Of a stretch of 64,000 bases of DNA, positions 962 through 62,781 are shown one piece after another. The stretch's first letter is position 1, and every line of letters starts with the position of its first letter. The DNA comes from an uncultured Acidimicrobiales bacterium. Its GTDB lineage: Bacteria; Actinomycetota; Acidimicrobiia; Acidimicrobiales; SZUA-35. The notes beneath the pieces are model-generated. The model ran no database searches and was not told the origin of the DNA. It saw nothing but the letters and a program-made list of their open reading frames with translations. Location: contig CAVZHQ010000001.1 in NCBI GenBank assembly GCA_963775125.1, positions 79,209 to 143,208 of the forward strand, given 5' to 3'. Position numbers and translations under genes: made by a program.

Positions 962-3225
962 ACATTCTGTTGTTGGGCTCGGGCGGCCGCGAGCACGCCA
1001 TCGCGGTGGCGCTGCTGCGTGAACCCGATCGGCGGCTGTTCGTCGCTCCGGGCAACGCGGGAACTGCGGCGCACAACGTCGACCTGGATCTCGACGACCA
1101 TCAGGACATCCTCAACTTCTGCGAAGCCGAGCGCATCGACCTGGTGATCATCGGTCCCGAGGCCCCCCTCGTCGCCGGCCTTGCCGATGATCTGCAGGCA
1201 TCGGGCATCCCCTGCTTCGGGCCCACTGCGGCAGCGGCCCGTCTGGAAGGATCGAAGGCCTTCACCCGACAGTTCGCCAGCAGGCACGGCATTCCCGGCC
1301 CTCGATCGGCCACGTTCACCGACGTCGGCCAAGCCTTGGCCTGGCTCGACGAGGTGGGCAAGCCGGTCGTGGTCAAGGCCGACGGACTGGCATCGGGGAA
1401 AGGCGTCATCGTCCCGGCCGACCGGGTCGAGACCGAACGGGCGATCTTCGAGATGCTGTCGGGCCAGACCCTGGGAGCCGCAGGCAGCACCATCGTCCTC
1501 GAAGAACGCATGGAGGGCGAGGAGATCTCGCTCATCGGGTTCTGCGACGGCCGCACGGTCAAGGCGCTGCCTCCGGCTCAGGACCACAAGCGAGTCGGTG
1601 AGCACGACACCGGCGCCAACACCGGAGGCATGGGTGCCTTCGCTCCCGTGCCCAGTGTGAGCAACGCCCTCTGGCACGAGCTCACCGTGAGCTTTCTCCA
1701 GCGCGCGGTCGATGCCATGGCCAGCGAGGGTACGCCGTACGTAGGCATGCTGTACGCCGGACTCATGCTCACCTCCGCCGGTCCCCGGCTGGTCGAGTAC
1801 AACTGCCGGTTCGGTGATCCCGAGGCCCAGGTCTTGCTCCCGCTGCTTGCGTCCGATCTGCTCGAGGTGATCCAAGCGTGCATCGACGGTCATCTGGCCG
1901 ACGTCGACCTGCTCATCCGACCGGGCACCGCTGCGGCTGTCGTGGTTGCAGCCGAGGGCTATCCCGCCGCGCCACGGGTGGACCTCCTCGTTCCCACGGT
2001 CACGGGGACCGCTGACGCCATGGTGCTGCACGGTTCGACCAAGGTCGATCCCGCAGGCCGCGCCGTGTCGACGGGGGGCCGAGTCCTCAACGTCGTCGGC
2101 ATGGGCCAAGAGCTGGCTGCTGCCCTCGACGCTGCCTACGAGGTGGTGAACCAGATCACGATCGACGGCGCTCACCTGTTCGCCCGCTCCGACATCGGAT
2201 GGAGACACTTGCCCCGCGACCCGTACGAACAAGCCGGCGTGTCCTTGAGCGCAGGGGCGGCCACCACCGCCCGAATCGCGGCGTCGGTGAAGAGCACGCA
2301 CGATGCTCGGGTGGTCGCCGGCCTCGGAAGCTTCGGTGGCGTCTTCGACATCGCCGCGCTGGTGAAGATGGACCAACCGCTCCTGGTGGCTTCCACCGAC
2401 GGGGTGGGGACCAAGACGCTCATTGCCGAGAAGCTCGATCGTTGGGAAGGGTGCGGCGCCGACATCGTGAACCATGGGGTCAACGATGTGCTCGTGCAGG
2501 GGGCGCGGCCGCTCTTCTTCCTCGACACCGTCGCGTCCGCCACGCTGGACCCCGAGATCGTCGGCCGGGTGGTCGACGGCATGGCCGAGGCCTGCAGGAA
2601 CAACGGCGTCGTTCTCCTGGGCGGCGAGACGGCTGAGATGCCCGACGTACTGGTCGCCGGCGCCGTCGACATCTCCGGAACACTGGTCGGCGCGGTCGAA
2701 CGAGGCCGGTTGCTGCCTCGTCCTGGCATCGCGCCCGGACATGTGTTGGTCGGGTTGGCCTCTTCGGGGTTGCACACCAACGGGTACAGCCTTGCCCGCA
2801 AGGTCGTGGCCGAGCTCGACCTTCGCCAACCGCTACCCGGCGGTGACGGTGAGTCCATCGGCGACGCGCTTCTCGCGGTGCACCGAAGCTACCTGGCACC
2901 ACTGAGTGCAGCGCTCGACGCCGACCTCATCGACGGCCTGGCCCACATCACCGGAGGCGGGCTCATCGACAACCTGCCCCGCATTCTGCCCGACGGCTGC
3001 GGGGCCGCCATCGACCGCAACTCCTGGGTCGTGCCACCCCTGTTCCAATTCATCATCGCCCGCAGCGGGCTCGACCCGGTCGAGTCGCTCAATTTCCTCA
3101 ACTGCGGCATCGGCATGGTCGCGGTCGTTGCCCCCGAGAACGTCGATGCGGCCCGCGCCGCGATCCCCGAGGAAACGTGGATCATCGGACACGTGACCGA
3201 AGGCGCCGAGGTGCGCATCGGATGA
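958..3225 (+). CDS. purD-purM: fused phosphoribosylamine-glycine ligase (PurD) / AIR synthetase (PurM), 755 aa
   Basis: One open frame runs from GTG 958 to TGA 3223-3225 (in-frame part of ORF 31..3225). The N-half is PurD (ILLLGSGGREHA, GLASGKGV, tail RSDIGWR). The C-half is PurM (YEQAGVS, STDGVGTK, GGETAEMP, SSGLHTNGYSL). Only HLPRD lies between the halves and there is no stop. Confidence 0.8.
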   Translation: MNILLLGSGGREHAIAVALLREPDRRLFVAPGNAGTAAHNVDLDLDDHQDILNFCEAERIDLVIIGPEAPLVAGLADDLQASGIPCFGPTAAAARLEGSKAFTRQFASRHGIPGPRSATFTDVGQALAWLDEVGKPVVVKADGLASGKGVIVPADRVETERAIFEMLSGQTLGAAGSTIVLEERMEGEEISLIGFCDGRTVKALPPAQDHKRVGEHDTGANTGGMGAFAPVPSVSNALWHELTVSFLQRAVDAMASEGTPYVGMLYAGLMLTSAGPRLVEYNCRFGDPEAQVLLPLLASDLLEVIQACIDGHLADVDLLIRPGTAAAVVVAAEGYPAAPRVDLLVPTVTGTADAMVLHGSTKVDPAGRAVSTGGRVLNVVGMGQELAAALDAAYEVVNQITIDGAHLFARSDIGWRHLPRDPYEQAGVSLSAGAATTARIAASVKSTHDARVVAGLGSFGGVFDIAALVKMDQPLLVASTDGVGTKTLIAEKLDRWEGCGADIVNHGVNDVLVQGARPLFFLDTVASATLDPEIVGRVVDGMAEACRNNGVVLLGGETAEMPDVLVAGAVDISGTLVGAVERGRLLPRPGIAPGHVLVGLASSGLHTNGYSLARKVVAELDLRQPLPGGDGESIGDALLAVHRSYLAPLSAALDADLIDGLAHITGGGLIDNLPRILPDGCGAAIDRNSWVVPPLFQFIIARSGLDPVESLNFLNCGIGMVAVVAPENVDAARAAIPEETWIIGHVTEGAEVRIG

Positions 3226-5416: not shown

Positions 5417-5458
5417 CGGTCACGCAGGACTGACCGTCACGCAGGACTGACCGTCACC
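5411..5458. repeat. 17-bp tandem repeat GACTGAC(G/C)GTCACGCAG x2.8 spanning the stop codons of two convergent genes
   Basis: Read directly. Contains the guaB TGA (5414-5416) and the minus-strand TGA (5439-5437). Confidence 0.9.
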
Positions 5459-7468
5459 CACGTGTCGTGGAACGCGGCGGAACCCCGGCCATCGGCGGGG
5501 ACCGTCGGGTTGGTGAGCGCGTTGACGCTCCGCCCCTGCTCGGTGTGCCGGTTCCACCAACCGAACGGCATCGACGCCAGACCCGGCTGCAGATCAGTGC
5601 TCAGCGCGGCAGTGACCGTGAGCGTGCCCCGCTCGTTGTGCACGACCACCCGAGACCCCTCGAGCACGCCGCGCGCTGTCGCATCGTCGGGATGCAGCTC
5701 GAGCCGAGGTTCGGCCGGGTCGGGCAAATGGGCCGGATCGCCACCGTAGTTGGCGTTCAAGAAGCGGAGATGCTGTTTGCGGCTGATGAGCATGAGCGGC
5801 TCGGACTCGCCCGCGGGGGTCGGCGCGGTCCCGGGACCGGGCGGGCGATGGGTCAGGGCGCCGAGATGGAGGCGGCCGTCGGTGGTCTCGGTCGGCGCAT
5901 CGACGTTGGGGCGGAAGCCGACCGGTACGCGCAGACGCTCCCAGCGGTGGGCGACCAATGATTCGAAAGTGATGCCGTCGAGCCACGGGTGACGGCTGTC
6001 GAGCAGCCCGCGAATGAGCTCCTCGTCGGACCGGGCCAGGAGCGGATCGGTCAGACCGAGTCGCTGGGCGAGAAGTCGGAAGATCTCGGTGTTCGGGCGG
6101 GCATCGCCGACCGGAGCGATTGCGCGGCTGGTTGAGCGAGAGGTAGAGGTGGCCCCACGAGATGCCGAGGTCGAGGTGTTCGAGCTGGGTGGTCGCCGGC
6201 AGGATGACGTCGGCGTAGCGCGCCGTGTCGGTCAGGAATTGCTCGATGACCACCGTGAAGAGGTCGTCCCGTTCGAGTCCGGCGATCACCTGGTTCTGGT
6301 CGGGACAGATGACCGCAGGGTTCGAGTTGTGGACGAACAGCAGATCGATCGGAGGGTCGAGGGTCGAGTTCGTCAGCACCTGGCCGAGCGCGGCCATGTT
6401 GAACCGCCGGCGCTGATCGTCGGTGGGCGGGGGAGCCGGGTAGTTGAGCGCCGTCTCGAAGTAGATCTGGGTGGAACGGGCAAGGCCACCGCCCGGGTCT
6501 CGCCATGCTCCGGTCAGCGCCGGCAGGATGGCGATCGCCCGCATGATCTCTTGACCGTTGGTCCGGTGTTCGGCACCGATGAGCGATCGCACTGCGGCCG
6601 GCCGTTCGGTGGCGAACCGACGGGCCAACCACTCGATCCGTTCCACCGAAATGCCCGTCTCTGCGGCGACTTGGTCGAGTGACAGGACGGCGGCCGACGC
6701 GACGAGTTCTTGCGACCCGGTGGCGTGTCCGTCGAGCCACTCGGGGTCGAGGAGGCCGTCGCGATGCAACACCTGCACCAAGCCGAGCACCAGGGCGACG
6801 TCACTGCCGGGTCGCACCTGGAAGAACTCGTCGGCTCGGGCGGCGGTCGGGGTGCGAACGGGGTCGACCACGATGACGCAAGCGCCACCTGCACGCGCCC
6901 GTTCGATCACGGGCCAGAGGTGCCGATTGGTGTGGTAGGTGTTGGTGCCCCACAGCACGATGGTCCGAGCTCGGTCCAAGTCCCATGGGTCGATCCCGAA
7001 CGGCTGGCCCGAGACCTCGGCCGCGCCGAGCCAGGCGGTGACACCGCAAAGGTGCCGGTGCACGTCGCTGCTCTGGAGTACCGAGAAGAATCGGTCGGCG
7101 ACGATGCCCTTCTGAATCACCCCCTGGGTGCCGTCGAACGAGTACGGCAAGATCCGCTCGGCGCGTCCCTCGTGCCGAAGTCCGTCGATACGGGCCGCCA
7201 CGAGGTCGAGCGCGTGCTCCCACGTGGTCTGCTCGAACCGCGCCGTGCCCTTCGGTCCGACACGGACCAACGGATGGAGGAGACGCTCGGGGTGGTAGAC
7301 CCGGTCGAGGTAGCGGTTGACCTTCGGACAGAGTTGGCCCTGGGTGGTGGGGTGGTCGGGGTCGCCTCTCAGCGAGACCGCTCGCCCGTTGTGGACCGTC
7401 ACGTTCCAGACGCAACTGTCCGGGCAGTCGTGGTGGCAGGATCCGGTGACCGTCAACGCCGGCGTCAA
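5437..7468 (-). pseudogene. molybdopterin (bis-MGD) oxidoreductase, frame broken by an apparent 1-nt insertion near 6118-6130
   Basis: The N-part lies in ORF 5594..7582 (CHHDCPDSC 4Fe-4S motif, ..ADVILPATTQLEH..SLNQP). The continuation AIAPVGDARPNTEIFRLLAQRLG.. is in the next frame and joins ORF 5437..5958 (MGD-binding C-domain). The span is 2032 nt, which is 3n+1. TTG start 7468 overlaps the upstream stop. Confidence 0.75.
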
Positions 7469-8187: not shown

Positions 8188-9265
8188 GGCCAGACTCTCT
8201 CCTATTTCGCGCGGGTTCGCCAGCTTCGCAGGGTCGGCCGGTCATACTGTGGGCGTGCCTGCTCGATCGAGCGAACCTGTCGTCCTCCTGCCCGACGAAC
8301 GCGCCGCGATCCGGGCCTTCCTGCAGCGTTGCGAAGTCCGGTTGTCCACCCTGCACCGCACCGCCACCGCGTTGCTCTCCGGGGCCGGCCTGCTCGTCGT
8401 CCTCCCCATCGTCGCCAAGGACTCCATGACCGGGATCGTCCGGTCGCTCCTCATCGGTGAACGGTCCCTGTTCGATGGCCTGCTCCTGCTCGCCGTCGGG
8501 GCGGTGCTGCTCGTTCCCGGCGTTGCGTTGTGGCTGGTCTTCCGGGATCTCACCCGCTTCTACTTCCACGCCAACCATGTCGGCGACCAGAGTGACGCGA
8601 CCTTCACCTTGCGGTTCACGCTCACGTCACTTCGGTTGCCCGTCGATGAGCTCGCCGCGTCATCGGCGTCGGCCCTGGCGACCGCTCGTTCCGCCGATGG
8701 GGCGATCGAACTCCTCGTCCCAGCCAATGACGCGGCACGACGACGCATCGACCGTCAGCTTCACGTCTACGACGCCGGACGGTCGCGGGTCATGGCCACC
8801 GACGCCGATCGGGCCGAGGCGATGTTCGAACTTGCGGCAGCCCACTCGCGCTCCCTGGTCGAAGAGGTTGCCAAGGTGGAGCACGGGATGGCCCGACACA
8901 CCCTCCGGCTCCAGGGCATCGTGCTGCGCTACGTGAAGGCGTTGCTGGCGTTGTTGGTCACCGCAGCCGCGGTCTACGCCGGGGACGCTGCCGTGGCCGG
9001 CGCGCTCGCCACCGGCGACGGCGTGCATGCCATCGAGGCCATCTGGCTCTCGGCGATCCTATTGCTCTGGGCCCCGGCCGTCGTGCTGGCCGTCAAGTCA
9101 CCCGTTCGGTGGATCGAGCAACTGGCTCGGTCGGAGGCCTCATCGTCCACCGCGGTTGCCAACGATCCGGAGTTCACCTTCGTCGAGCGAGTGACCTTGC
9201 GCATCGTCGGCGTGGCCGGAGTCGCCTCGGCCGCAGCGCTTGCTGCCGCCATCGTTCAGTACTGA
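8186..9265 (+). CDS. hypothetical multi-pass membrane protein
   Basis: In-frame part of ORF 8132..9265 beyond the divergent gene start. Several hydrophobic segments. No family recognised and the start is uncertain (GTG ~8251 also possible). Confidence 0.45.
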   Translation: MARLSPISRGFASFAGSAGHTVGVPARSSEPVVLLPDERAAIRAFLQRCEVRLSTLHRTATALLSGAGLLVVLPIVAKDSMTGIVRSLLIGERSLFDGLLLLAVGAVLLVPGVALWLVFRDLTRFYFHANHVGDQSDATFTLRFTLTSLRLPVDELAASSASALATARSADGAIELLVPANDAARRRIDRQLHVYDAGRSRVMATDADRAEAMFELAAAHSRSLVEEVAKVEHGMARHTLRLQGIVLRYVKALLALLVTAAAVYAGDAAVAGALATGDGVHAIEAIWLSAILLLWAPAVVLAVKSPVRWIEQLARSEASSSTAVANDPEFTFVERVTLRIVGVAGVASAAALAAAIVQY

Positions 9266-9330
9266 CCATAACCGACTGAGCTGTCCGATTTCCGCTAGCG
9301 AGAGCGGGACTCGTCGGTCAGACTGCGAGC

Positions 9331-12657: not shown

Positions 12658-13476
12658 ATGGAATCCTTTCGTCATCTGCATCAGCCGGGAAATCCCTTCG
12701 TGCTGGCCAATGCCTGGGATCGGGGCAGCGCTCAGGTCTTGGCCGCGCTGGGAGCCGAAGCCATCGGAACGACCTCGGCCGGGTTCGCCTTCACTCGTGG
12801 GGTTCCTGACGGTGGCCGAGTGTCGCTGGACGAAGCGCTCGATCACGCCGCCGACCTCGGATCGGTCACCGGCCTGCCCATCTCGGCCGACCTGGAGAAC
12901 GGCTACGGCAGCACGCCGGAGGAGGTGGCCGACACCATTCGTCGGGCCGCTGCGGCGGGACTTGCCGGCTGTTCGATCGAGGACACGATCCTGGGTACCG
13001 GCGACTCCTTCGACCTGGCCGAGGCACTCGAGCGAGTGTCCTCAGCGGTTCAAGCGGCACGGGGGTTGGGGGGCGACTTCGTGCTGGTGGCTCGGGCCGA
13101 TGGCCTGCTGCATCGCAACTACACCGTCGATGACGCCATCGAACGGGTCAAAGCCTTCGCCTCGGTCGGGGCTGACTGTGTCTACATCCCGCTGCTGCCC
13201 GACCTTTCGACGGTCGAACGGGTGTGCGCGGCAGTGGACGTTCCGGTCAACGTGCTGGTCGTCGGGCCGATGACCGCGCATCGGAGGGAGGCGTTCGGAG
13301 CGGCCGGAGTGGCGCGGCTGTCGCTGGGGTCAGCGCTCGCTCGGGTGACCCATCGGGCGCTGATCGATGCAGCGGCGGCGGTACTGGACGGCGGCGACTT
13401 CTCGATGCTGTCTGCGGGTGCGTCGGGAACTGCGGTCGACGCACTCCTGCTTGCCGGGTGCCGGTCGACGACTTGA
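12658..13476 (+). CDS. isocitrate lyase / PEP mutase superfamily protein (2-methylisocitrate lyase-like)
   Basis: ORF 12658..13476. Motifs NAWDxxSA, TSAGFA, ADLENGYG, CSIED. Confidence 0.8.
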   Translation: MESFRHLHQPGNPFVLANAWDRGSAQVLAALGAEAIGTTSAGFAFTRGVPDGGRVSLDEALDHAADLGSVTGLPISADLENGYGSTPEEVADTIRRAAAAGLAGCSIEDTILGTGDSFDLAEALERVSSAVQAARGLGGDFVLVARADGLLHRNYTVDDAIERVKAFASVGADCVYIPLLPDLSTVERVCAAVDVPVNVLVVGPMTAHRREAFGAAGVARLSLGSALARVTHRALIDAAAAVLDGGDFSMLSAGASGTAVDALLLAGCRSTT

Positions 13477-13967
13477 GGCAGTGCGCATTCCACGCCTGCT
13501 GATTCAGAGAGCGTGGCGATGGCCGCGGTGTACTGGTCGAGTTGGCGGGGCTGGCCCAGGCCGCCGCTGTCGAAGATCTCACGGATCTTGCCGTCGGTTC
13601 CGATGACAACGGTTCGGCGCGTTGCGCAGCCAAGGTCGGCATTGAAGCACTCGTAGGCGGTGGACACGGCACCGTGGGGCCAGCCATCGGACAGGAGCGG
13701 AAAAGTGAAGCCCTGCTGGTCGGCCCACGCCTTGAGCGAGAACTGCCGGTCGCAGGTGATGCCGAACAGCTGGACGCCGGCACGGTTGAACGATTCGAGG
13801 TTCTCACTCAACTCGCAGAACTCCCCCTGGCACACACCGGTGAAGGCGAAGGGAACGAAGACGAGGACGACCGGCTTGTCGCCTTGGAAGGTCGAGAGCG
13901 TGTACTCGGTGCCGACCTGGTCCCTGAGGGTGAAGTCTGGAGCGGTGTCGCCGACGGACAGAGCCAT
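13182..13967 (-). CDS. peroxiredoxin (AhpE/Bcp-like); the conserved domain ends near 13504, and the remaining ~100 codons are an unconserved-looking extension antisense to the neighbouring gene
   Basis: ORF 13182..13967. Motifs GDTAPDF, VLVFVPFAFTGVCQGE, LLSDxWPHG. A TGA sits one frame off at 13506-13504. Confidence 0.8.
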   Translation of the reverse strand: MALSVGDTAPDFTLRDQVGTEYTLSTFQGDKPVVLVFVPFAFTGVCQGEFCELSENLESFNRAGVQLFGITCDRQFSLKAWADQQGFTFPLLSDGWPHGAVSTAYECFNADLGCATRRTVVIGTDGKIREIFDSGGLGQPRQLDQYTAAIATLSESAGVECALPQVVDRHPASRSASTAVPDAPADSIEKSPPSSTAAAASISARWVTRASADPSDSRATPAAPNASLRCAVIGPTTSTLTGTSTAAHTRSTVERSGSSGM

Positions 13968-14031
13968 GATGATTTTCCTGTCAGAGAGGGTGGACGGCCC
14001 ACACGGCCGGAGCGCAGTCTAGGGTTCGCCG

Positions 14032-15027
14032 GTGTCTGACGTACCGGCGGTTGATCACTGGGCTCGCGAGGTCGATGCGCTGGTCGACGTGCTCCGGCTC
14101 GAACTCGGTTCGTTGCCCTTCGATGCCACGCCTGATGCCCTGTACTGCGCCGACGATCTGTACGCCGGGATCGACCTGGGGTTCGCCGCCACCGTCGACC
14201 AACAGATCTACGTGCGGGCCCACCGGGCGGGTCGACCGCCGCTCGCCCCTGCCGAGGAACTGGCGCAGCGTCTGCACGATCATGGCATCACCGCAGCACT
14301 GAACCAGTTCAGGGTGGGGCGGACGCTCGTCGGAGTGATGGGAGGCCACGCCATGCTCCGCGGCTCGGTCGGTTATCGCCAGATCGTCTCCTTGGGGCGA
14401 TCGTTGACCCTCGCCGGGTTCTGCGTGACGACGGGAGGTGGTCCGGGCGCGATGGAGGCAGCGAACCTCGGAGCCATGACCTCGCTCACTCCATGGGACA
14501 CCGTGGAGGCCATCGTCGACGACCTCGCCCGGTTCCCGAGTTTCCGGGACGATGCCGACGGGTTCATCCGAGCCGGTCTGCGGGCGGCGAGATCCATCGA
14601 GGACCCTCGGGTGTCCTTGTCGGTCCCGACGTGGTTCTACGGTCACGAGCCGAGCAACCCCTTTGCCCTTGCCATCGCCAAGTACTTCTCCAACAGCGAA
14701 CGCGAGGCCGGACTTCTCGCCATCGCCGACGGTGGCATCGTGTTCGCCCCCGGCGGGCCAGGCACGCTGCAGGAGGTGTTTCAAGACGCGGCACAGAATG
14801 CGTACGAGACCTTCGGCCCCGCCAGTCCGATGGTCTTCCTCGAGCATCCCGACGACCCCGAATGGTGGCAGCGATCGGGGGTACTCGCAGCATTGCAGAC
14901 GGTATTCGTCGATTACTCGGGCAGGGCGCGGCCGGGCAAGGCGCTGATTGGTCGTGCGTCGTCGGTGGCGAATGCCGTCGAGTTGCTGCAAGCGGGTAGG
15001 GTCAGAAATCCATCGAACAGCGCGTGA
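14032..15027 (+). CDS. LOG-family (TIGR00730-type Rossmann) protein
   Basis: ORF 14032..15027. Motifs TGGGPGAMEAAN and PGGPGTLQE. Ends 13 nt before selD. Confidence 0.65.
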   Translation: MSDVPAVDHWAREVDALVDVLRLELGSLPFDATPDALYCADDLYAGIDLGFAATVDQQIYVRAHRAGRPPLAPAEELAQRLHDHGITAALNQFRVGRTLVGVMGGHAMLRGSVGYRQIVSLGRSLTLAGFCVTTGGGPGAMEAANLGAMTSLTPWDTVEAIVDDLARFPSFRDDADGFIRAGLRAARSIEDPRVSLSVPTWFYGHEPSNPFALAIAKYFSNSEREAGLLAIADGGIVFAPGGPGTLQEVFQDAAQNAYETFGPASPMVFLEHPDDPEWWQRSGVLAALQTVFVDYSGRARPGKALIGRASSVANAVELLQAGRVRNPSNSA

Positions 15028-15040
15028 GCGGGAGGTGAGC

Positions 15041-16074
15041 ATGACCCGACGACTGACCCAGTTCAGCCACGGCGCTGGTTGAGCCTGCAAGCTCGCCCCC
15101 GGCGACCTGGCGCACGTGCTGCGCCGTCTGACTCCGTCGAACGATCGTCGACTTCTGGTCGATGCAACCACTGGTGACGACGCTGCCGTCTGGCAGATCG
15201 ACGACGACCGCGCGCTTGTTGTCACCGCCGACTTCATCACCCCCCTGGTCGACGACGCCTACACGTGGGGTCGCATCGCCGCGGCCAACTCGGTGTCCGA
15301 CGTCTACGCCATGGGCGGCAGGCCGTTGCTGGCTCTGAATCTGGTCGGCTGGAACACCGAGGAACTGTCGAACGAGCTCCTCGGTGAGGTCCTGGCCGGT
15401 GCGGCTTCGATCGCGGCCGCCGCCGGCTTCGTCATTGCGGGCGGCCACACCGTCGACGATCCCGAACCCAAGTTCGGGCTGGCGGTCGTCGGTGAGGTCC
15501 ACCCGGCCCGGATCCTCACCAACGCGGGTCTGAAGCCCGGGCAGTCCCTGGTGCTCACCAAGCCGTTGGGTATCGGGATCATCTCCACTGCGCTCAAGCG
15601 AGGGCACGAGTTTGCCGCCGAGACCTTCGAGCAGGCCGTCGTCGAGATGACGCGCGCTCAACGATCATGCCGCTCGTATCGCTCTGGCCGCCGGAGCCAC
15701 CGGTGCAACCGACGTCACCGGCTTCGGGTTGCTCGGGTCATCTCGGCCGAGCCGTCCTCGAGTCACATGTCGACGCCGACCTTGACCTCGCGTCGGTGCC
15801 CTTCCTCCCAGGAGTGCGCCAACTGGCCGAGGACGGTTTCATCCCCGGCGGGTCCCAACGGAACCTGGCCCACATCAGCCCCCAGCTCGATGCCGGCCCG
15901 ATCGACGAACTGTTCCAGGTCATGCTGGCCGACGCGCAGACGTCGGGTGGTCTGGTGTTCGGCGTCGATTCGGTCGACGCCGACGCCGTGGTGGCCGAAC
16001 TCGTTGCGCTCGGTCATACGGCCGCCGTCATCGGCCGCACCCGCGTCGGATCGGGTCGGATCGTGGTCCGATGA
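15041..16074 (+). CDS. selD: selenide, water dikinase (selenophosphate synthetase); Sec (UGA) at codon 14; frame broken twice by apparent 1-nt insertions (~15655, ~15736)
   Basis: SD GGAGGTG then ATG 15041. MTRRLTQFSHGAG-TGA-ACKLAPGDL continues in frame into ORF 15116... The middle segment LNDHAARIALAAGATGATDVTGFGLLG is in a second frame, and the C-part is ORF 15667..16074 (HLGRAV..VIGRT). The span is 1034 nt, which is 3n+2. Confidence 0.85.
15080..15125 (+). promoter_or_regulatory. selD UGA-Sec codon plus candidate SECIS hairpin GGCGCA-CGUGC-UGCGCC (15109-15125)
   Basis: Read directly. The hairpin assignment is tentative. Confidence 0.5.
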
Positions 16075-16490
16075 TGACGCCTTCCGACGTTCACGTTTCC
16101 ACCATTGCCGTCCGTTTCAACGAGCTCGACCCGTACGCCCACGTGAACCACGCGGTGTATGCGACCTATTGCGAGGTTGCGCGCACGGAAGCGCTCGCCG
16201 CCATTGGGCTGTCGATCGAGGAGCTGGCGCGCCAGGGCTTCCAGTTCGTCGTCACCGAGTTGAGCCTGCGGTTCCGCAAACCAGCCGTCGCCGGAGACAT
16301 CCTGTCGGTCGACACGTGGCTGTCGGAGATCGGCCGTGCCAGTACGCGCTGGTCGCAACGCATCCGGCGGGGCGACGAACTGTTGGTCGAAGCCGAGTTG
16401 AAGGTCGGTGTCGCCAATGGCCTCGGCCGGCCGACGCGGCCGACGCCCGAGATGGTGGCCACGCTCGAGGCACTTCACCGATCGCGGTGA
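16071..16490 (+). CDS. acyl-CoA thioesterase, 4HBT/YbgC-like hotdog fold
   Basis: ORF 16071..16490. Motif VRFNELDPYAHVNHAVY. The ATG overlaps the selD stop (ATGA). Confidence 0.8.
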   Translation: MMTPSDVHVSTIAVRFNELDPYAHVNHAVYATYCEVARTEALAAIGLSIEELARQGFQFVVTELSLRFRKPAVAGDILSVDTWLSEIGRASTRWSQRIRRGDELLVEAELKVGVANGLGRPTRPTPEMVATLEALHRSR

Positions 16491-16501
16491 GGTAGGCCAC
16501 G

Positions 16502-16784: not shown

Positions 16785-17784
16785 ATGGCCATCTCGTTCT
16801 ACAAAGACTTCGATCCGGTGTACGGCGAAGTCACCCAGCTTGCTCCGCTCGTCCGTCGCGTCGTCGCCAAGAACGCCAACCCGTTCACCTGGAAGGGCAC
16901 CGGTGTCTACCTCGTGGGGCGCGGTGACGTCGCCGTGATCGACCCGGGCCCGACGCTCGACGAACACCTCGATGCCATCCAGGCCGCCCTCGGATCCAGA
17001 CGAACAGATCAACCACATCGTCATCACCCACACGCACACCGATCACACCGCCGGTGTACCGAAGCTTCTCGACCGCACAGGCGCCAGGACCTACGGCTTC
17101 GGCCCCCACGGCGAGGTTCCCGACAAGGACCCGCTCGAGTCCATCAGCTTCGACGAGTACTTCACCCCGGACGAGAAGGCCAAGATCGACAAGGAATGGG
17201 CCGACATGCCCGATGAGCTGAAGCGGGAAGGTCCCGACATCGAGTTCCGGCCCGACGTCCCGTTGGCCCACGGCGAATCCATCAACGGCGACGGCTGGAG
17301 CCTCGAAGCCGTGCACACGCCCGGCCACACCTCCAACCATCTCTGCTTCGCCCTGAGCGACGACGGTGACGGTCAGCGGGTGCTGTTCACCGGCGACCAC
17401 GTCATGGGCTGGGCGACCTCGGTCATCTCGCCCCCCGACGGTGACCTCTACGACTACCTGAGCAGTCTCGAGGTCCTCCTCGGTCGCGAGGACGATCGCT
17501 ACTGGCCAACGCACGGCACAGCCATCACCGACCCGAAGCCGTTCGTCCGTTCCTTCATCGAACATCGGCGCGGCCGGGAACAGCAGATCATCGCCGGGCT
17601 GGCCGACAAGAAGTCGGCGACGATCAAGGACCTCGTGCCCGCCATGTACGCCGACGTCGACAAACGACTCTGGCGCGTGGCGGCCAACTCGGTCTACTCC
17701 CATCTGCTCGCCCTGCACCGTGAAGACCGAGCCCACCCGGTCGAAGGCGACCCGTCGCTCAGCGCAACGTGGCAGCTCGTGTGA
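16785..17784 (+). pseudogene. MBL-fold metallo-hydrolase, frame broken by an apparent 1-nt insertion near 16990
   Basis: ORF 16785..17216 (..LDAIQAALG) continues as DPDEQINHIVITHTHTDH in ORF 16972..17784. The span is 1000 nt, which is 3n+1. Confidence 0.75.
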
Positions 17785-18562
17785 AGGCCATGCCAACGAT
17801 CGGGTAGTCGAACAACAACTCGGCTCCCTCGAAGCGGGCATTGACGCCGAGCCCGTGGCCCTCGTCGATCGAGCGCACGAACGCCTGGCGGAAACCGTCG
17901 TGATCGGTTCCGTGCGATCGACTCAGCACCGCGTCGACCGATGCGCGCAGTCGGTAGGACACCTCGTCGACGACGTTCCAGCCCTGCGTTTCGAGAAGGT
18001 CGCGCTGCTCGGTCGATCGCAGGTTTCGGACGTGCGACGGATCGCGGAGTCGTTCGGCGTCGTCGTAGGCCGAGGCGATCGCTGCGGTTTCGGGAGCGGC
18101 GAAATCGACGATGACCACTCGCCCGTCAGGCTTCGTGACCCGGATCAGCTCCCGCACCACGTGCTCTGGGTCCGAAGCGTGATGGAGCGCGTAGCGACTG
18201 ACCGCCACATCGAATGTCCCATCCTCGAAATCGAGCGCCGTCATACGACCGTGCACGAACGTGGTCCGATCAGCGACGCCCTCGGCCGCTGCTCGCTCCT
18301 CGGCCAGGAGGAGGACCGCAGGAGTCAGATCGACACCGGTCACCCGTGCCCCTCGTCGGGCGAGGTCGACCGAGACGATGCCCGGACCGCACGCCACGTC
18401 GATGACACCCACGCCGGGTGCGATCGCTGCCAACCGAGCAAGGGCGTCGAGGGCGCCTTCGTCGTTCATCAGAGGAGCCGACGCATACGAGGAGCCGTGG
18501 GCCGTGAACTGTTCGACTGCCGCCCGCTCGACCTCGCTCGAATGCAACGGTGATGCGCTCAT
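17759..18562 (-). CDS. class I SAM-dependent methyltransferase
   Basis: In ORF 17759..18724 from MSASPLH (ATG 18562, SD GGAGGGG upstream). Motif VIDVACGPG. The region upstream of 18562 is repeat DNA. Confidence 0.85.
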   Translation of the reverse strand: MSASPLHSSEVERAAVEQFTAHGSSYASAPLMNDEGALDALARLAAIAPGVGVIDVACGPGIVSVDLARRGARVTGVDLTPAVLLLAEERAAAEGVADRTTFVHGRMTALDFEDGTFDVAVSRYALHHASDPEHVVRELIRVTKPDGRVVIVDFAAPETAAIASAYDDAERLRDPSHVRNLRSTEQRDLLETQGWNVVDEVSYRLRASVDAVLSRSHGTDHDGFRQAFVRSIDEGHGLGVNARFEGAELLFDYPIVGMAFTRAATLR

Positions 18563-18609
18563 ACCCCTCCGATGGTAGTAGCGACCCAAGCAGACGGCCG
18601 TTGGCTTTT

Positions 18610-18677
18610 CGCAACCGCTCCAAACTCGCAACCGCTCCAAACTCGCAACCGCTCCAAACTCGCAACCGCTCCAAACT
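18610..18677. repeat. 17-bp tandem repeat CGCAACCGCTCCAAACT x4
   Basis: Read directly. It abuts the hairpin element, and the unit shares CGCAACCG with the hairpin 5' arm. Confidence 0.95.
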
Positions 18678-18731
18678 CGCAACCGTGTGCAGTGCGCACC
18701 TCTGGGAGGGGCAGAACTGCACACGGTTGCG
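18678..18731. repeat. dispersed hairpin element, copy 1: 16-bp perfect stem CGCAACCGTGTGCAGT / ACTGCACACGGTTGCG, loop containing CCTCTGGGAGGGG
   Basis: Read directly. A near-identical copy lies at 43876-43936. Confidence 0.85.
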
Positions 18732-18736
18732 ATTGT

Positions 18737-18800
18737 TCATGCCGGGTCGGCGGCGTCCGCCGCCTCGATCATGCCGGGTCGGCGGCGTCCGCCGCCTCGA
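18737..18800. repeat. 32-bp tandem duplication x2 of the serB 3' end including its stop codon
   Basis: GCCGGGTCGGCGGCGTCCGCCGCCTCGATCAT occurs twice (18741 and 18773). Both minus-strand ORFs end ..IEAADAADPA. Confidence 0.9.
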
Positions 18801-19965: not shown

Positions 19966-19980
19966 CGTACCGTCGCTCGA

Positions 19981-22900
19981 TCAGCCACCGGAAAAGTTGA
20001 ACCGGCCAACCGACGCGAATCGCAGGTCTCCGGCCTCCTCGTTCTTGACCACGGTGGGCTGCGCCCCGAGACATCGGCCGACGGCAACTCCCGACCCCGT
20101 CCATTCCCAGCACGCGGACAGATCGGTGGAGGTATTCGGTACGGCCATCGACAGGGAGGTGCCGGCGGGTGCACCCGTCAGCTGGGCCTCGAAACCGTCG
20201 TCCCATTGGCCGAGCGCCGCCGGGGGTCGGGTCCGTGCTTCGCCGAACACGTCGGACGAGTCGTCCCACGCCATGAAGTCGATCACGTCTCCATCGGTGT
20301 CGAGGAGCCACAGGTCGTCGCCGAAAGCATCGAGGACCGCCCAGGGTCGATTCGCCTCGTACGAAACGACACTCCCGGGTGCCGCGGGGAACGGCCCGCC
20401 GCCTGCGCTGCTGTCGGGATTGGTTGTCCAGACGATCACCGACTGTCCCGGGCCCAACATCACCGGGTCGAACGAGACCTGGAACGAGGTGTCGAAGGGG
20501 ATGATGGTGACCCAGAAGATGTCGTGGAGGCCGTCGACCGGGTCGAAGTCCTGGAGGCGTAGACCGTCGAGGGAGACGGGATCGCTGCTCACGTTGGTCA
20601 CCTCGATGAACTCATCGATCACGACGAACTGCTCGGACTCGGCGTACAACACCTCGGTGATGGCCAACGCGCCCGACAGACCCGATCGCCCGTACTCCGA
20701 GATCGTGAAGAGGAAGCTCGTGCTCGCCTCCGCGCCGGACGGATCGGCTACCACCAGGGTCACGGTGGACGAACTCCCCTTGGTCGACGGGTCGGCGTCA
20801 CCGGAGATGATTCCGGTGACGCCGTCGATCGAGAGCCCCGCCGGCAAACCGGTGGCGGTGAAGGTCAGCGTGTCGCCGTCTGAGTCAGAGGCCAACACCG
20901 CCAGCGAGAAGGGCACCCCGGCAGCGCCGGCCTGATCCGCCACGGCCTGGAGGACCGGTGTGTCGTTGACCCCGATGACCGTGACCGTGCCGGCACCGGC
21001 GCCGCAGAGCCCACCGGGATCGCACACCGTGTAGGTGAACGCTGCGGTCCCTACGAAGTCCGGTGGTGGCGTCCAAGTAGCCTCGGTCGTGCCGAACGTG
21101 ATCGTGCCGACAGCAAAGGTGATCCCGGTTGCCGTGAGTGGATCACCGTCGACATCGACGTCGTTGGCGGCCAACGATGCGTGGCCGATCGTCAGCGGCG
21201 TGTCCTCCAACGTGGCGAACGCGTCGGTTGCGGCCACCGGGGCGTCGTTCACCGGCGAGACGCTGATCACCCCAGTGGCCGAGGTACACAGTCCGAGTGG
21301 ATCACACGCGTCGTAGACGAAGGTGGCCGGGCCATGGAAGTTCGGCGGCGGAGTCCACACGAACGCGTCGGAATCGACGGTCAACGTCCCTGTGCCGAAC
21401 CTGAGGTCGGCAACGGTCAAGGCATCTCCGTCCGGGTCGCTGTCGTTGGCCGGCAGCGTGGCCAACAAGACGGTCACCGGCGTGTCCTCGGTTCCGGCCA
21501 CGAGGTCGTCCGCCGGAGTCGGCGGGTCGTTGACGGGAACAACCGCAATGGTGGCAACGGCAGGGCTGCAGGCAAGTGAGGGGTCACAGACTTCGTAGCC
21601 AACCGTCGCCGGGCCGTCGTAGTCGGTCGGCGGTGTCCACAAGTACCCGTCGGGGGTGGTGCGGCCGGTTCCGATACTGGAGGTCAGCCAGCGGATCGAC
21701 GGTCGGTCGCCGTCGGGATCCACGTCGTTTGCCAAAACCTGGGCGGTCAGCAGAACGAGGTCGACGTCCTCGTTGACCGAGTAGCTCTCGCCTGCAGCGA
21801 CGGGTGTGTCGTTGACGGCCAACACCGTAATGGTTGCGACGGCGGGGTCCGAACAGCCGACGGAAGGGTCACAGACGGTGTATTCGAACGTATCGGTTCC
21901 GTTGGCGTTCGGGTTCGAGGTGTAGATCGCAACCCGTTGGTGGCCGAGAGGGGCGCCGGCGGTTTCGCCTTGTCCGCTTGTCGCTGCGTCGCCCGGCGCC
22001 GCAGTCGCAGTGGCCGCGGTGAATCGGACCGAACCAAAGGATGGAGCTCGAGTAATGCTGAACACCGCCAGCCCTCCGTCGGTGGTCGCCTCGAGCGTGA
22101 CGGCGAGAGTGCTGTCCTCTGCGGTCGTGGCACGAACTGCGAACGCGGTCGGCCGAATGGGGGCGGCGGTGGTCGTCGTGGTCGAGGAGACCGTCGTTGG
22201 CGGGGTGGTCGTGCGGGGAATGGTGGTTGGTCCCACGCTCGTCGCGGGCCGTGCCGCCGTGGATGCTGTTGGCGGAAGGCTCGGAGCCGTCGTGGTCGGA
22301 GCCTGGGTCGTCGATGGTCCCTCGATGGTGATGACGGTGGTCGTTGGCTCTCCAAGCTCACCGCTCGTGGTGCTGGTGGTTGCGTTGCCGGTCGAGTTGA
22401 CGGAGGTCGTGGTCTCCTCGACGAAGGCCAGGGCCGGTGGCGGTTCCTCGGGCAGCAGGGCTCCCCCGAAGCCGCCGGTGACGAACGCCGCTCCGGCCGT
22501 CACCAGAGCGGTCACACCTGTGGCAAGCGGCGTGGCGACGGGGGCGAGGGGGACCTGGGACACGGCCGGCAGATTGGCGGCCCACGACAACGGTCCGATG
22601 GCCAGCCGGAGCCGGCCGATTCCGATGTTGAGGAAGGCGCGGGCGACGCGGGGGTCGAACTGGGTCCCGGCGCAGCGGGCAATCTCGGCTCGAGCGACAT
22701 CGGCCGGCATTGGCTTCTTGTAGGAACGGACCGACGTCATCACGTCGAAGGCGTCGGCCACGGCGACGATGCGGGCACCGAGGTGGATGTCATTGCCGGA
22801 CAACCCGAACGGATAGCCGTCGCCGTCCCATCGCTCGTGGTGCTGCGACACCGCGTTGTGCCACTCGCCGAGCCAGGGTTTCAGCGGGGCGATGAGCTTG

Positions 22901-23535
22901 TCTCCGGCCATCGGGTGAGTCTTGAGGATCTCCCATTCCGCGTCGGTTGGCCGACCGGTCTTGGTGAGGATCTCCTGGGGGACCATCAGCTTGCCGACGT
23001 CGTGCAGCAGCGACGACCAGCGGAGCTTGCTGGCCGACCGATCGTCCAGGCCCATCTCCTCGACGATGAGATCGGTGTAGGCCCGCACCCGTTCGCAGTG
23101 GCCGCGGGTCAGGCGATCGTGCACGCTGAGCGCGGCCACCATCTCGAGCATCGTGGTCGCGTAGTTGGCGTTCTGATTGAGCCGCCCTGACGCTTGGGCC
23201 TCCGCGACCCGTCGCTGGAGCTGACGGGTCGTCCCGGTCCGCAGCGCGGTCGAGAAGCGGTTCGGCGCCTGATCGGGGAAGATCAGAGACAGCTTGAACA
23301 AGGCCACGAGCGGGAGCATCCGCCGAGCGAGCGAATCCGAGGCGAGAAGCACGATCAGGCCGACGGCGAAGAGGCCGATCCACCACACGAAGACGTTGAG
23401 ACCCAGGGCGTGGGGCGGAAGCTTGCGGGCCAGAACGAAGGTGGCGACGAACGAAACCACCGTCGGAGCCAGGGTGATGAGTGCGCGGAATCGTCCAGGC
23501 CAGCGCGGGTCGGCTGGTCCAGTGAGATTCCTCAC
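19981..23535 (-). CDS. membrane HD-GYP domain protein with large extracellular cadherin-like / Ig-like / lamin-tail-like region (1184 aa)
   Basis: ORF 19981..23535. TM helices, then HDVGK..HHERWDGDGYP, another TM segment, a T/P-rich linker, about 4 repeats with NDxPVA..ANDxDxDGD, then FTATGLPAGLSIDGVTGIISG and ITEVLY..EFIEVTN. Confidence 0.8.
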   Translation of the reverse strand: MRNLTGPADPRWPGRFRALITLAPTVVSFVATFVLARKLPPHALGLNVFVWWIGLFAVGLIVLLASDSLARRMLPLVALFKLSLIFPDQAPNRFSTALRTGTTRQLQRRVAEAQASGRLNQNANYATTMLEMVAALSVHDRLTRGHCERVRAYTDLIVEEMGLDDRSASKLRWSSLLHDVGKLMVPQEILTKTGRPTDAEWEILKTHPMAGDKLIAPLKPWLGEWHNAVSQHHERWDGDGYPFGLSGNDIHLGARIVAVADAFDVMTSVRSYKKPMPADVARAEIARCAGTQFDPRVARAFLNIGIGRLRLAIGPLSWAANLPAVSQVPLAPVATPLATGVTALVTAGAAFVTGGFGGALLPEEPPPALAFVEETTTSVNSTGNATTSTTSGELGEPTTTVITIEGPSTTQAPTTTAPSLPPTASTAARPATSVGPTTIPRTTTPPTTVSSTTTTTAAPIRPTAFAVRATTAEDSTLAVTLEATTDGGLAVFSITRAPSFGSVRFTAATATAAPGDAATSGQGETAGAPLGHQRVAIYTSNPNANGTDTFEYTVCDPSVGCSDPAVATITVLAVNDTPVAAGESYSVNEDVDLVLLTAQVLANDVDPDGDRPSIRWLTSSIGTGRTTPDGYLWTPPTDYDGPATVGYEVCDPSLACSPAVATIAVVPVNDPPTPADDLVAGTEDTPVTVLLATLPANDSDPDGDALTVADLRFGTGTLTVDSDAFVWTPPPNFHGPATFVYDACDPLGLCTSATGVISVSPVNDAPVAATDAFATLEDTPLTIGHASLAANDVDVDGDPLTATGITFAVGTITFGTTEATWTPPPDFVGTAAFTYTVCDPGGLCGAGAGTVTVIGVNDTPVLQAVADQAGAAGVPFSLAVLASDSDGDTLTFTATGLPAGLSIDGVTGIISGDADPSTKGSSSTVTLVVADPSGAEASTSFLFTISEYGRSGLSGALAITEVLYAESEQFVVIDEFIEVTNVSSDPVSLDGLRLQDFDPVDGLHDIFWVTIIPFDTSFQVSFDPVMLGPGQSVIVWTTNPDSSAGGGPFPAAPGSVVSYEANRPWAVLDAFGDDLWLLDTDGDVIDFMAWDDSSDVFGEARTRPPAALGQWDDGFEAQLTGAPAGTSLSMAVPNTSTDLSACWEWTGSGVAVGRCLGAQPTVVKNEEAGDLRFASVGRFNFSGG

Positions 23536-23705
23536 TGGGGCGCCTTGTTGTAGAGGTGCCCCGTCCGGGCATGGCTACTCCCATAGTCGGTTCTTCGGTC
23601 GGAAAGCGAGCGGAGGTGAGAAGTCGGGGAGAACGACTCCCACACCCCCGGCGAGAAGGCACAAAAGGCCCATGCAAGGGCCGACGTGGCCAGTAAGTTC
23701 GACGC

Positions 23706-55136: not shown

Positions 55137-57090
55137 ATGGCCACCTCGTCTCTTCCCCGGAACCGCCTCTCCACCGTCCGGCCGCGACTCACCACCCCGC
55201 TGCTCCGCGTCGACGGTGAACTTCGGCCGGCGTCGTGGGACGCGGCGCTCAGTCGGGTCGCCGACGGCTTCACCGCCGTCAAGGAACAGCACGGGCCGTC
55301 TGCGTTCGCCTTGTTCTCCTGTTCCAAGAGCACCAACGAGATGAACTACGCGGCCCAGAAGTTCAGCCGTCTGGCGTTGGGGTCGAACAACATCGACTCC
55401 TGCAACCGCACTTGACACGCTCCCAGCGTCGTCGGTCTGGCGACAGTGTTCGGTGCCGGTGGCGGTACCTGCTCCTATGAGGAGGTGGAGGAGGCTGACG
55501 TCATCCTCCTGTGGGGGTCCAACGCCCGCGAGGCCCACCCCATCTACTTCCACCATGTACTGAAAGCGCTCGACAAGGGCGGCCGGATGTACGCGGTCGA
55601 TCCTCGGCGCACCTCGTCGGCCAAGTTCGCCGACGTCTGGTTGGGACTGAACCTCGGGGCCGACGTCGCGTTGGCCAACACCATGGCCAATCACATCATC
55701 GGCCAGGGCCTGGTGAACCAGGCGTTCATCGATCACTCCACGGCTGGTTACGAGGCGTTCAAAGCAGCGGTCGCCCGCTACACCCTCGAGCGCGGCGCCG
55801 AGCTCACCGGGCTGCCGGCGTCGGTCATCGCCGAGATGGCCGAGGCCTATGCCACCGCCGGCTCGGCCCAGATCCTGTGGACCCTGGGCATCACCGAGCA
55901 CCACAACGCGGTCGACAACGTCGTTGCCCTGTGCAACCTGGCGCTGCTCACGGGCCATGTCGGCCGGTGGGGAAGCGGGCTGGTTCCGCTCCGGGGCCAG
56001 AACAACGTGCAGGGCGGCGGCGACATGGGCGCTCTGCCCAACAAGCTTCCGGGCTTCGCCGACATCGATGATCCGTCGGCTCGCGCCCGGTTCGCCGCGG
56101 TGTGGGGCGCGGAGGTTCCGCCCGACCCGGGCCTGCACCTCACGCTCATGTTCGAGGCCATGGAGGCCGGAACCATCCGGGCGGCCTACATCCTGGGGGA
56201 GAACCCCGCGGACTCCGAGGCCGACGTCGCCCATGCCCGCAAGCTGCTGGCCGGACTCGACCTCCTCGTCGTCCAGGACATCTTCCTCACCCGCACCGCC
56301 GAGCTGGCCGACGTGGTGCTTCCCGCGTCGGTGGGCTGGGCCGAGTGCGAGGGCACGGTCACCTCGTCGGAACGGCGGGTACAACGGGTGCGCCCGGCGG
56401 TTCCTCCGCCGGGCGAGGCTCGCCACGACCACGAGATTCTCGGCGAGTTGGCGCGCCGCATGGGCGTCGACTGGGGAGACCCCTCGCCCCAGGACCTCTG
56501 GAACGAAGTGCGATCGTTGTCTCCCCTCCACGCGGGGATGTCCTACGAACGACTCGAGACCGAGGGAGGGCTGCAGTGGCCGTGCCCCGATCTCGATCAT
56601 CCCGGATCCCCCTTCCTGCATGGCTGGCTGTGGGAGGCCGATCTCGGCGGTCGGCCCCCGGCACCGTTCTCGGTGGTCGAGCACGCGGGCCCGAAGGAAG
56701 AGCTCTCCGAGCAGTTCCCCCTGCGACTCACCACCGGCCGGGCCCTCGACTCGTACAACACCGGCGTCCAGTCCGGCTCGCTCGACGCCCCGATCCGCTA
56801 CGGCGATGCCATCGACGTGAACCCCCTCGACGCGTCCGCCCTCCAGGTGGTCGACGGGGAGCGCGTGCGGGTCAGCTCGCCCCGGGGCTCGGTCGAGATG
56901 CCGGTACGCGTGCAACCGGACCTGCCGGTCGGCCTCACCTTCACCACGTTCCACTTCCCCGAACTCGTCGACCTCAACGTGCTCACCAATCCCGGAATGG
57001 GATCCTCGATCCGGAACCTCGGAGTTCAAGGCTGCCGCCATTCGGATCGACAAGTTGGATCCGTCCATCGCAGGCGTGCCCCGTGTCTGA
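55137..57090 (+). CDS. fdhA: formate dehydrogenase catalytic (Mo/W-bisPGD) subunit lacking the N-terminal Fe-S domains; Sec (UGA) at 55413-55415; apparent 1-nt insertion near 56996
   Basis: ATG 55137. ..NIDSCNRT-TGA-HAPSVVGLATVFGAGG.. joins ORF 54981..55415 to ORF 55446..57137 in frame. The C-terminus WDPRSGTSEFKAAAIRIDKL..V-TGA (57088-57090) is in the next frame. The span is 1954 nt, which is 3n+1. Confidence 0.85.
55413..55444 (+). promoter_or_regulatory. UGA-Sec codon plus candidate SECIS hairpin GUCGUC-GGUCU-GGCGAC (55428-55444)
   Basis: Read directly. There are 12 nt between the UGA and the stem, and the apical GGUCU is formed by the conserved Gly-Leu codons. Confidence 0.7.
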
Positions 57091-62159: not shown

Positions 62160-62781
62160 GGACCCCGGGTCGACGAGGGCGGGCAGGGTCAGTCAGGGTG
62201 CAGCCCGCGGAGTCCCCCCAGGCCAACGTCGTGAGGTCTCTGGCCAATTCGGCTCGGTCGAGCGCGGGACTGCGCTTCCAGAACCGAACCATCCCTTCGG
62301 CCATCCCGACCATGCCGTGTGCCAGCGCCTGGCGGTGGGCCTCGCTCATTCCCTCGACAACGATGAGGTCGGCGATGCCGTTGGCCACCGACTGTTCGAC
62401 GGCGGCCGCGATGCCTGCCCACTCCTCGTCCTCGCGGCTGGCTCCTCCGAACAGCACCCGGAAACCGTCGGGATCGGCCTCGACGAAGGCCAGATACGCC
62501 TCGAAGCCGGTCTTGACCTGTTCGCGCGGCGAACCCGCACTCGCTGCAGCCTTGATGACGTTCTCCCGGAGGCGGTCCCCGACGTCCTCGAGCACGGCCT
62601 GATAGAGGTCGCGTTTGGACGCGAAATGCTGATAGAGCACCGGCTTGGTGACGCCGGCTTCCAGGGCGACGTCGTTCATGGACGTCTCGTGGAAGCCCCG
62701 GCGGGCGAAGACCTCGCGGGCGACTTCGATGAGCTGTGTTCGTCGCTGGCCTGCAGGCAACCGCCCGGAAATGGCGGACAT
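62053..62781 (-). CDS. TetR-family transcriptional regulator; the C-terminus probably ends at 62189 if a C/G homopolymer (62214-62219) is one base short
   Basis: ORF 62053..62784. HTH FHETSMNDVALEAGVTKPVLYQHF. After ..TTLAW the +1 frame gives GGLRGLHPD-stop. The present frame runs 107 nt into the convergent gene. Confidence 0.8.
   Translation of the reverse strand: MSAISGRLPAGQRRTQLIEVAREVFARRGFHETSMNDVALEAGVTKPVLYQHFASKRDLYQAVLEDVGDRLRENVIKAAASAGSPREQVKTGFEAYLAFVEADPDGFRVLFGGASREDEEWAGIAAAVEQSVANGIADLIVVEGMSEAHRQALAHGMVGMAEGMVRFWKRSPALDRAELARDLTTLAWGDSAGCTLTDPARPRRPGVLSAAGSAAPAPFDAVRVRRPQWPSHRRVGGCRHGR

Follow-up and report, generated by a model that had tools for sequence, protein, structure and literature searches.

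A predicted selenocysteine-encoding selD gene with two conserved hairpins after its UGA codon, split by two single-base insertions in an Acidimicrobiales-type assembly

The 64-kb stretch of DNA analyzed here (the window; 66.7% G+C) carries, at 15031-16074 on the plus strand, the selD gene (selenide, water dikinase / selenophosphate synthetase) of an Acidimicrobiales-type actinobacterium, and the comparison of this locus with its relatives strongly supports the view that the gene itself encodes selenocysteine (Sec) at the Cys/Sec position of the N-terminal glycine-rich loop of the enzyme. Translation would start from ATG 15041 and the in-frame UGA at 15080-82 would be read as Sec14 within a catalytic loop of the form GAG-U-xCK, the recoding being directed by mRNA structure just 3' of this codon. 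In the present assembly the gene is spread over three reading frames by two extra bases. We consider it highly probable that these features are to be explained together, by a Sec-encoding selD in which the second of two downstream hairpins (H2) forms the core of a bacterial selenocysteine insertion sequence (bSECIS) and in which the two insertions are most likely assembly errors.

A preliminary description of this DNA had placed the selD start at ATG 15041 behind the Shine-Dalgarno-like GGAGGTG at 15031-15037, and both can be read in the sequence. Translation also confirmed the reading MTRRLTQFSHGAG-TGA-ACKLAPGDLAHVLRRL that it had given around the TGA, as well as its remark that the open reading frame (ORF) track starts too late, the mechanical ORF beginning at GTG 15116 and missing the N-terminus. 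What did not hold was the claim that this frame continues into the body of SelD. Similarity to SelD in frame 1 ends at 15655, after ...EQAVVEMTR, and is taken up in frame 2 and then in frame 3, such that AIRS and AIRS_C do not lie in one uninterrupted frame. In tblastn, residues 1-180/191 of the relatives' SelD map to window positions 15083/15116-15655, and the first two segments meet at 15655/15657 with zero residues lost. ORF 15116-16495 is chimeric and crosses the neighboring thioesterase gene in the wrong frame.

Profile scores and structure alignments were run on a repaired 343-residue protein, with the two extra bases removed and U14 written as C. This protein scores 368.8 bits on TIGR00476 (cutoff 125 bits), the family against which the preliminary description had proposed to align it, and 353.4 bits on NF002098 (cutoff 299 bits). 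Residues 4-332 align with residues 7-333 of E. coli SelD (3u0o_A; E 6.7e-72), unbroken across both repaired junctions, and the alignment with Aquifex aeolicus SelD (2yye_A) is contiguous as well. The catalytic loop of the window protein, SHGAG-U-ACK, lies opposite SHGAGCGCK of the E. coli enzyme, with position 14 opposite Cys17; Cys17 and Lys20 are known catalytic residues of E. coli SelD.

The Sec codon was followed through two sets of related loci. A scan of species-representative genomes gave 80 best loci, mostly from metagenome-assembled genomes (MAGs) of Acidimicrobiales, with a top identity of 90%, and a metagenome scan gave 80 further loci with a top identity of 72%; four of the 160 are cut off at the codon, leaving 156 that can be assessed. 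TGA is found at this position in all 80 best genome loci, each of them in a single frame with the peptide kept on both sides, and in 155 of the 156 assessable loci, the sole exception having TGC, so that its conservation is beyond chance. In 155 loci the peptide encoded by the 13 codons 5' and the 11 codons 3' of the TGA is conserved, giving the motif RLTxxSHGAG-U-xCK, which aligns with residues 7-20 of E. coli SelD. The best relative in a search of a 5.8-billion-protein set is 93% identical, and the three nearest sequences from that search (90-93% identity) read MTRRLTQFSHGAG-TGA-ACK. Public gene calls of the Sec-type relatives are shortened to 316-323 residues. Cys-type homologues (P0009-P0062; 63-68% identity) are called full-length, at 342-350 residues, have an equivalent N-terminus with TGC and read GAGCACK, with the Cys opposite U14 of the window protein. 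The earlier placement of the TGA at the Cys/Sec position of the glycine-rich loop is borne out by these alignments. Nearly all of the retrieved relatives, mostly Acidimicrobiales, have a Sec-type SelD, which is modestly new, and we infer that Sec is actually inserted at the UGA of the window gene.

The structure expected 3' of the UGA was assessed in an alignment of the TGA and the next 63 nt from 81 sequences, in which RNAalifold independently predicts two adjacent hairpins, H1 (columns 11-29) and H2 (columns 30-46). Compensatory double changes occur in 8 of the 14 pairs: 5 of 8 in H1, where they include swaps between Ser codons (AGC...TCT), and 3 of 6 in H2. The bases are paired in 93.8% of the alignment cells of H1 and 98.3% of those of H2 (95.7% for the two together), compared with 25-40% after the 3' partners were displaced by 1-3 columns, and none of 500 column shuffles reached the observed pairing values. 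Because some of the compensations couple a synonymous with a non-synonymous change, as in GCG to GCC (Ala) together with CGC to GGC (Arg to Gly), the constraint would appear to act on the RNA and not on the protein that it encodes.

H2 is the candidate hairpin at 15109-15125 of the preliminary description, which had also suggested SECIS prediction as a check; it proved to be present, conserved and covarying, and it fits the published model. That model (Zhang and Gladyshev, to the extent quoted in PMC13188914) has a stem of 4-16 bp, a loop of 3-9 nt with G in the first two loop positions, a UGA-to-loop distance of 16-37 nt and a minimum free energy (MFE) of -7.5 kcal/mol or lower. With 6 bp, the loop CGUGC, 32 nt from UGA to loop and -9.1 kcal/mol, H2 lies within it on all four counts. 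The same is true of 138 of the 156 Sec-type sequences, all 156 of which have G in the first two loop positions, and the G and U at loop positions 2 and 3 are invariant across the 81 aligned sequences. In five Cys-type loci (L140 and L164-L167) H2 is reduced to 1-4 of its 6 pairs, with an MFE above -7.5 kcal/mol. H1 falls outside the model, its CCC loop lacking a G and starting 15 nt after the UGA.

We propose that H2 would present its apical-loop G-U to SelB, acting as the likely SelB-binding core of the bSECIS, with H1 occupying the spacer between the UGA and H2; binding of SelB to H2 is presumed from the fit to the model. The occurrence of two predicted tandem hairpins, conserved after the UGA across the clade, is modestly new. 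They may conceivably form a distinct two-hairpin class of bSECIS in which H1 is functionally required, a tentative idea that we lean against at present. With their covariation and their loss in Cys-type genes, H1 and H2 provide a clean comparative dataset for bSECIS modelling in an area where Rfam has no coverage.

Alignment of the DNA with the closest relatives locates exactly two single-base insertions in selD (at ~15655 and ~15737), and no substitutions, deletions or premature stops are found alongside them. None of the 163 related loci in which frame intactness was compared has a frameshift in selD. When dN/dS was computed between the window and the relative L162, with every segment taken in its own repaired frame, segments 1, 2 and 3 gave 0.058, 0.021 and 0.092, compared with 0.03-0.23 for neighboring genes. 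The window as a whole holds six clean +1 insertions in 64 kb, or about one per 10 kb, a frequency that calls for caution in any ORF-based inference from this assembly; all of the anomalies are insertions, mostly outside homopolymers. A 20-kb syntenic locus of L162 has 20 genes in common with the window, 17 of which are single-frame in the window. The other three are split, namely selD (twice), a Cys-type molybdenum (Mo)-oxidoreductase and an MBL-fold gene, and in each break one skipped base restores the frame with no residue lost. The joined Mo-oxidoreductase aligns over 11-651 with 9t1s_L. proS, a gene that is normally essential and single-copy, is also broken, and the joined ProS aligns over 1-563 with the ProRS 8w8j_A. 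Because none of the relatives is split, proS is also broken and dN/dS is low in the repaired frames, we take the six insertions, including both of those in selD, to be either an assembly artefact, which we think quite probable, or extremely recent. The selD insertions are most likely not a biological feature of the gene, and the quality of the window assembly is suspect.

Several observations weigh against this interpretation. The nearest relative shares only 93% protein identity, and a conspecific copy, sought in the genome, metagenome and protein searches, was not found (best identities 90%, 72% and 93%), leaving no conspecific sequence that would prove the insertions to be errors. A gene of just 1 kb, selD, received two of the six insertions, for which we estimate a chance of ~0.005 under uniform placement; three of the six are clustered within 1.35 kb, four lie in selenium- or molybdopterin-related genes, and their contexts are mostly non-homopolymer, a pattern not typical of the usual types of sequencing error. 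Poor sequence quality in this part of the assembly would account for the clustering. With regard to the RNA, the window copy of H1 has a C.C mismatch at 15092/15106, and single-sequence folding of the GC-rich region of 51-66 nt did no better than shuffles (z -0.25 to -1.2). No SECIS or other relevant Rfam family was found in the whole window at the gathering threshold or in 15030-15200 at E values up to 10, where the sole match (ASdes, E 2.4, opposite strand) was dismissed as chance. Because single-sequence folding does not beat shuffles and Rfam has no matching family, the structural support for H1 and H2 is comparative only; bSECIS elements are poorly represented in Rfam (preprint 10.64898/2026.04.03.716425). 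Finally, no selA, selB or selC is present within the 64-kb window, in which about 60 ORFs were scanned for families and there is no tRNA gene.

The frameshifts in selD could instead be real, in which case the gene would be a freshly inactivated pseudogene, with its ancestral Sec-TGA and SECIS intact, in a lineage that is losing selenium use. In favor of this, the two selD insertions lie within 80 nt of each other and three insertions within 1.35 kb, the Sec-containing fdhA-like gene elsewhere in the window is likewise frameshifted near its C-terminus, and lineages are known to have lost selenoproteins and the Sec trait in the course of evolution (PMC1794560). However, like 1-nt insertions break proS, the MBL-fold gene and the Cys-type Mo-oxidoreductase too, dN/dS values of 0.02-0.09 past the shifts in the SelD frame would require the inactivation to be extremely recent, and the shifts stand without any accompanying lesion. 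We regard inactivation of selD as improbable, and we give slightly less credit still to the wider proposal that all six insertions are real and that the genome has been caught losing selenium use with its Sec-UGA codons and SECIS hairpins still pristine.

Two further alternatives concern the TGA and are very improbable indeed. If it were a genuine stop, or lay outside a gene that begins downstream (for example at GTG 15116) and has no N-terminal loop, the late start of the mechanical ORF and the similarly short automatic calls in the relatives would be accounted for. The conserved codons on both sides of the TGA would not be, nor would their match to the E. coli residues up to and including Cys17 and Lys20, the Shine-Dalgarno sequence and ATG that precede the motif, or the equivalent N-terminus of the Cys-type homologues. 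The TGA might equally be a sequence error for TGC or TGT in an assembly that holds at least six indel-type anomalies, but TGA is the ancestral state, shared with relatives as close as 90-93% identity, none of the anomalies is a substitution, and the window copy of H2, the Sec-specific hairpin, is undamaged. The least credible proposal, programmed +1 ribosomal frameshifts that regulate SelD output, has nothing but the presence of two shifts in its favor and conflicts with their absence from every relative, the identical-looking insertions in unrelated genes and the lack of a common slippery motif at the sites. On the preferred reading of a Sec-encoding selD split by assembly errors, annotation of the gene should begin at ATG 15041, with recoding to Sec at 15080-82, and not at GTG 15116, and the chimeric ORF 15116-16495 is unfit for use.

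Table 1. Features of the selD locus, the predicted Sec site of the fdhA-like gene and the further single-base insertions in the window
Feature	Position	Strand	Basis or remarks
Shine-Dalgarno-like GGAGGTG	15031..15037	+	read off sequence; 3 nt before ATG 15041
selD segment 1, frame 1, Met1-Arg205 including Sec14	15041..15655	+	translation, tblastn
Predicted Sec codon TGA, U14	15080..15082	+	opposite Cys17 of E. coli SelD (3u0o_A); TGA in 155/156 loci
Predicted hairpin H1, AGCUCGCC-CCC-GGCGACCU	15090..15108	+	RNAalifold; 8 bp in consensus
Predicted hairpin H2, candidate bSECIS core, GGCGCA-CGUGC-UGCGCC	15109..15125	+	perfect 6-bp stem, 5-nt loop
First extra base, ACGCG(C)GCTC, to frame 2	15655..15656	+	1-nt gap versus L001, L002, L003, L162
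selD segment 2, frame 2, LNDHAARIALAAGATGATDVTGFGLLG, 27 residues	15657..15737	+	translation, tblastn
Second extra base, CTCGG(G)TCAT, to frame 3	15735..15738	+	1-nt gap versus L001, L002, L003, L162
selD segment 3, frame 3, HLGRAVLES...GRIVVR, 111 residues and stop TGA 16072-16074	15739..16074	+	
1-nt insertion in Cys-type Mo-oxidoreductase (gene 5437-7462)	~6124	-	
1-nt insertion in MBL-fold gene (gene 16785-17784)	~16996	+	
1-nt insertion in proS (gene 53365-55060), before anticodon-binding domain	53599	-	
Predicted Sec codon TGA 55413-55415 of fdhA-like gene; hairpin GUCGUC-GGUCU-GGCGAC 55428-55444	55413..55444	+	
1-nt insertion near fdhA C-terminus	~56997	+	

A second predicted Sec-TGA gene in the window, an fdhA-like gene at 55137-57088 (+), marks the organism, as far as can be judged from sequence, as Sec-decoding. 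Its in-frame TGA splits the Pfam Molybdopterin domain, in the context NIDSCNRT-U-HAPSVVGL, and residues 13-640 of the read-through protein align with residues 57-688 of E. coli FDH-H (1aa6_A; E 1.6e-129). A hairpin lies 12 nt 3' of this TGA, with a GGUCU loop from 18 nt after the UGA and a folding energy of -6.8 kcal/mol. By its family membership, SelD would make selenophosphate for Sec-tRNA synthesis, supplying at least SelD itself and the Sec-containing fdhA-like gene. In one relative, an Actinomycetota MAG (L080), a tRNA-Sec gene (anticodon tca, L080 5829-5922) lies directly 5' of a Sec-type selD; no selA or selB was found by Pfam in the 6-kb flanks of this pair. The fdhA-like gene opens a formate dehydrogenase operon (55137-59676, +) of unusual layout, in which the Mo-binding part of FdhA comes first, without an Fe-S N-terminus, followed by a NuoE/NuoF-like fusion (57088-58852) and a 2Fe-2S/4Fe-4S/Molybdop_Fe4S4 gene (58847-59676). 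Little was learned from a crude scan of the window for genes with an in-frame TGA, which picked up fdhA but not selD; its other results were two ordinary stops between same-frame neighbors and one short TGA-interrupted stretch (54747) that has neither hairpin nor homology support.

No bacterial selenoprotein families are more widespread than FdhA and SelD, and all of the surveyed selenoproteomes contained one or both (PMC1794560). Because SelD is the second most widespread prokaryotic family (PMC1794560, PMC13188914), the window selD is a further ordinary case of a well-known type of protein. Among Actinobacteria, a 2006 survey listed SelD selenoproteins in Rubrobacter xylanophilus and Symbiobacterium thermophilum (PMC1794560), and the Sec form has been described in Actinomarina, of the Acidimicrobiia (2026 preprint 10.64898/2026.04.03.716425); a 2026 review gives Sec as the catalytic residue in the N-terminal loop of SelD (PMC13188914). 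The window gene resembles the bacterial Sec-SelDs in belonging to the TIGR00476 family, in the equivalent position of Sec in the N-terminal loop and in having a coding-region hairpin after the UGA. Further Sec-containing examples are the enzymes of Aquifex aeolicus (PDB 2yye/2zod) and Haemophilus influenzae. The window gene differs from the listed Sec-SelDs in coming from a high-GC relative of the Acidimicrobiales, in its two tandem hairpins and in the two 1-nt insertions of the present copy.

The E. coli enzyme (3u0o) is ~45% identical over the N-terminal 185 residues and shares the catalytic loop GAG-C/U-xCK, but it has Cys in place of Sec and needs no recoding signal. When set beside the bSECIS of the E. 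coli fdhF type, H2 agrees in stem, loop G-U, spacing and energy, whereas there is no single long hairpin from the UGA and a separate H1 is found at +8 to +26. SenC of the sen clusters and the SelD of selD-ybbB operons are also SelD-family enzymes that supply selenophosphate, but the window contains no EgtB/SenA-like, SenB-like or YbbB-like neighbor. Neither senA (EgtB-like) nor senB (glycosyltransferase) is adjacent to selD, and no YbbB/SelU or Sen family was found among the ~60 window ORFs, which bears out the earlier remark that a classical sel operon context is lacking here. According to Peng et al. 2016, as cited in the preprint 10.64898/2026.04.03.716425, the selenouridine trait is absent from sequenced Actinobacteria. 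At 301-1635 of the related locus L164, a DinB_2 + FGE-sulfatase (EgtB/SenA-like) gene begins 8 nt after the gene for a Cys-type SelD (P0009, 66% identity); this setting is selenoneine-cluster-like and contrasts with that of the Sec-type gene in the window.

The neighbors of selD encode a PEP mutase, an AhpC/TSA protein, a weakly SLOG/LOG-like protein, a 4HBT thioesterase and an MBL-fold protein. The preliminary description had named a LOG-family gene 13 nt upstream. The gap stands, as the upstream gene (14032-15027) has its stop at 15025-15027, but its assignment is weak, with a marginal SLOG/LOG-superfamily match to LDcluster4 (26.4 bits, cutoff 26.3) and 25 bits on TIGR00730 (cutoff 96). The hotdog thioesterase that had been described as overlapping the 3' end of selD was recovered as a 4HBT/YbgC-type gene (16071-16490), whose ATG at 16071 overlaps the selD stop in ATGA 16071-16074; this overlap belongs to frame 3 and not to the frame of ATG 15041. 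A look-up of the exact thioesterase protein gave no record. Among the related loci, a thioesterase lies directly 3' of selD in 8 of 145 and a LOG-like gene directly 5' in 3 of 141, and the closest relatives, L001 and L162, have no LOG-like or AhpC gene at all. We see no grounds for connecting selD functionally with its neighbors. Four segments of the window (~13450-15026, 8240-9270, 17785-18740 and 19975-23700) are absent from the syntenic loci L001 and L162; they encode the AhpC/TSA and LOG-like proteins, a 338-residue protein without a family, a methyltransferase and a 1197-residue protein with an HD domain and cadherin/Big_9 repeats.

At 970-3225 (+), a single ORF of 751 residues contains GARS_N/A/C (purD) followed by AIRS/AIRS_C (purM), and is explained either by a fusion of purD with purM or by the loss of a stop, or an error in frame, where two separate genes adjoin. 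A home-made Viterbi gene and frameshift caller flagged 22 frame changes in the window, mostly artefacts of gene overlaps or of start choice, and only those confirmed by homology were kept; an amidase gene at 44071 and a TetR gene at 62231, both flagged, are single-frame by Pfam. Within the continuous 1197-residue ORF at 19981-23574, about 150 nt at 21869-22357 (-) have a codon-position composition that favors another frame, which probably reflects the composition of the repeats there and no shift in frame.

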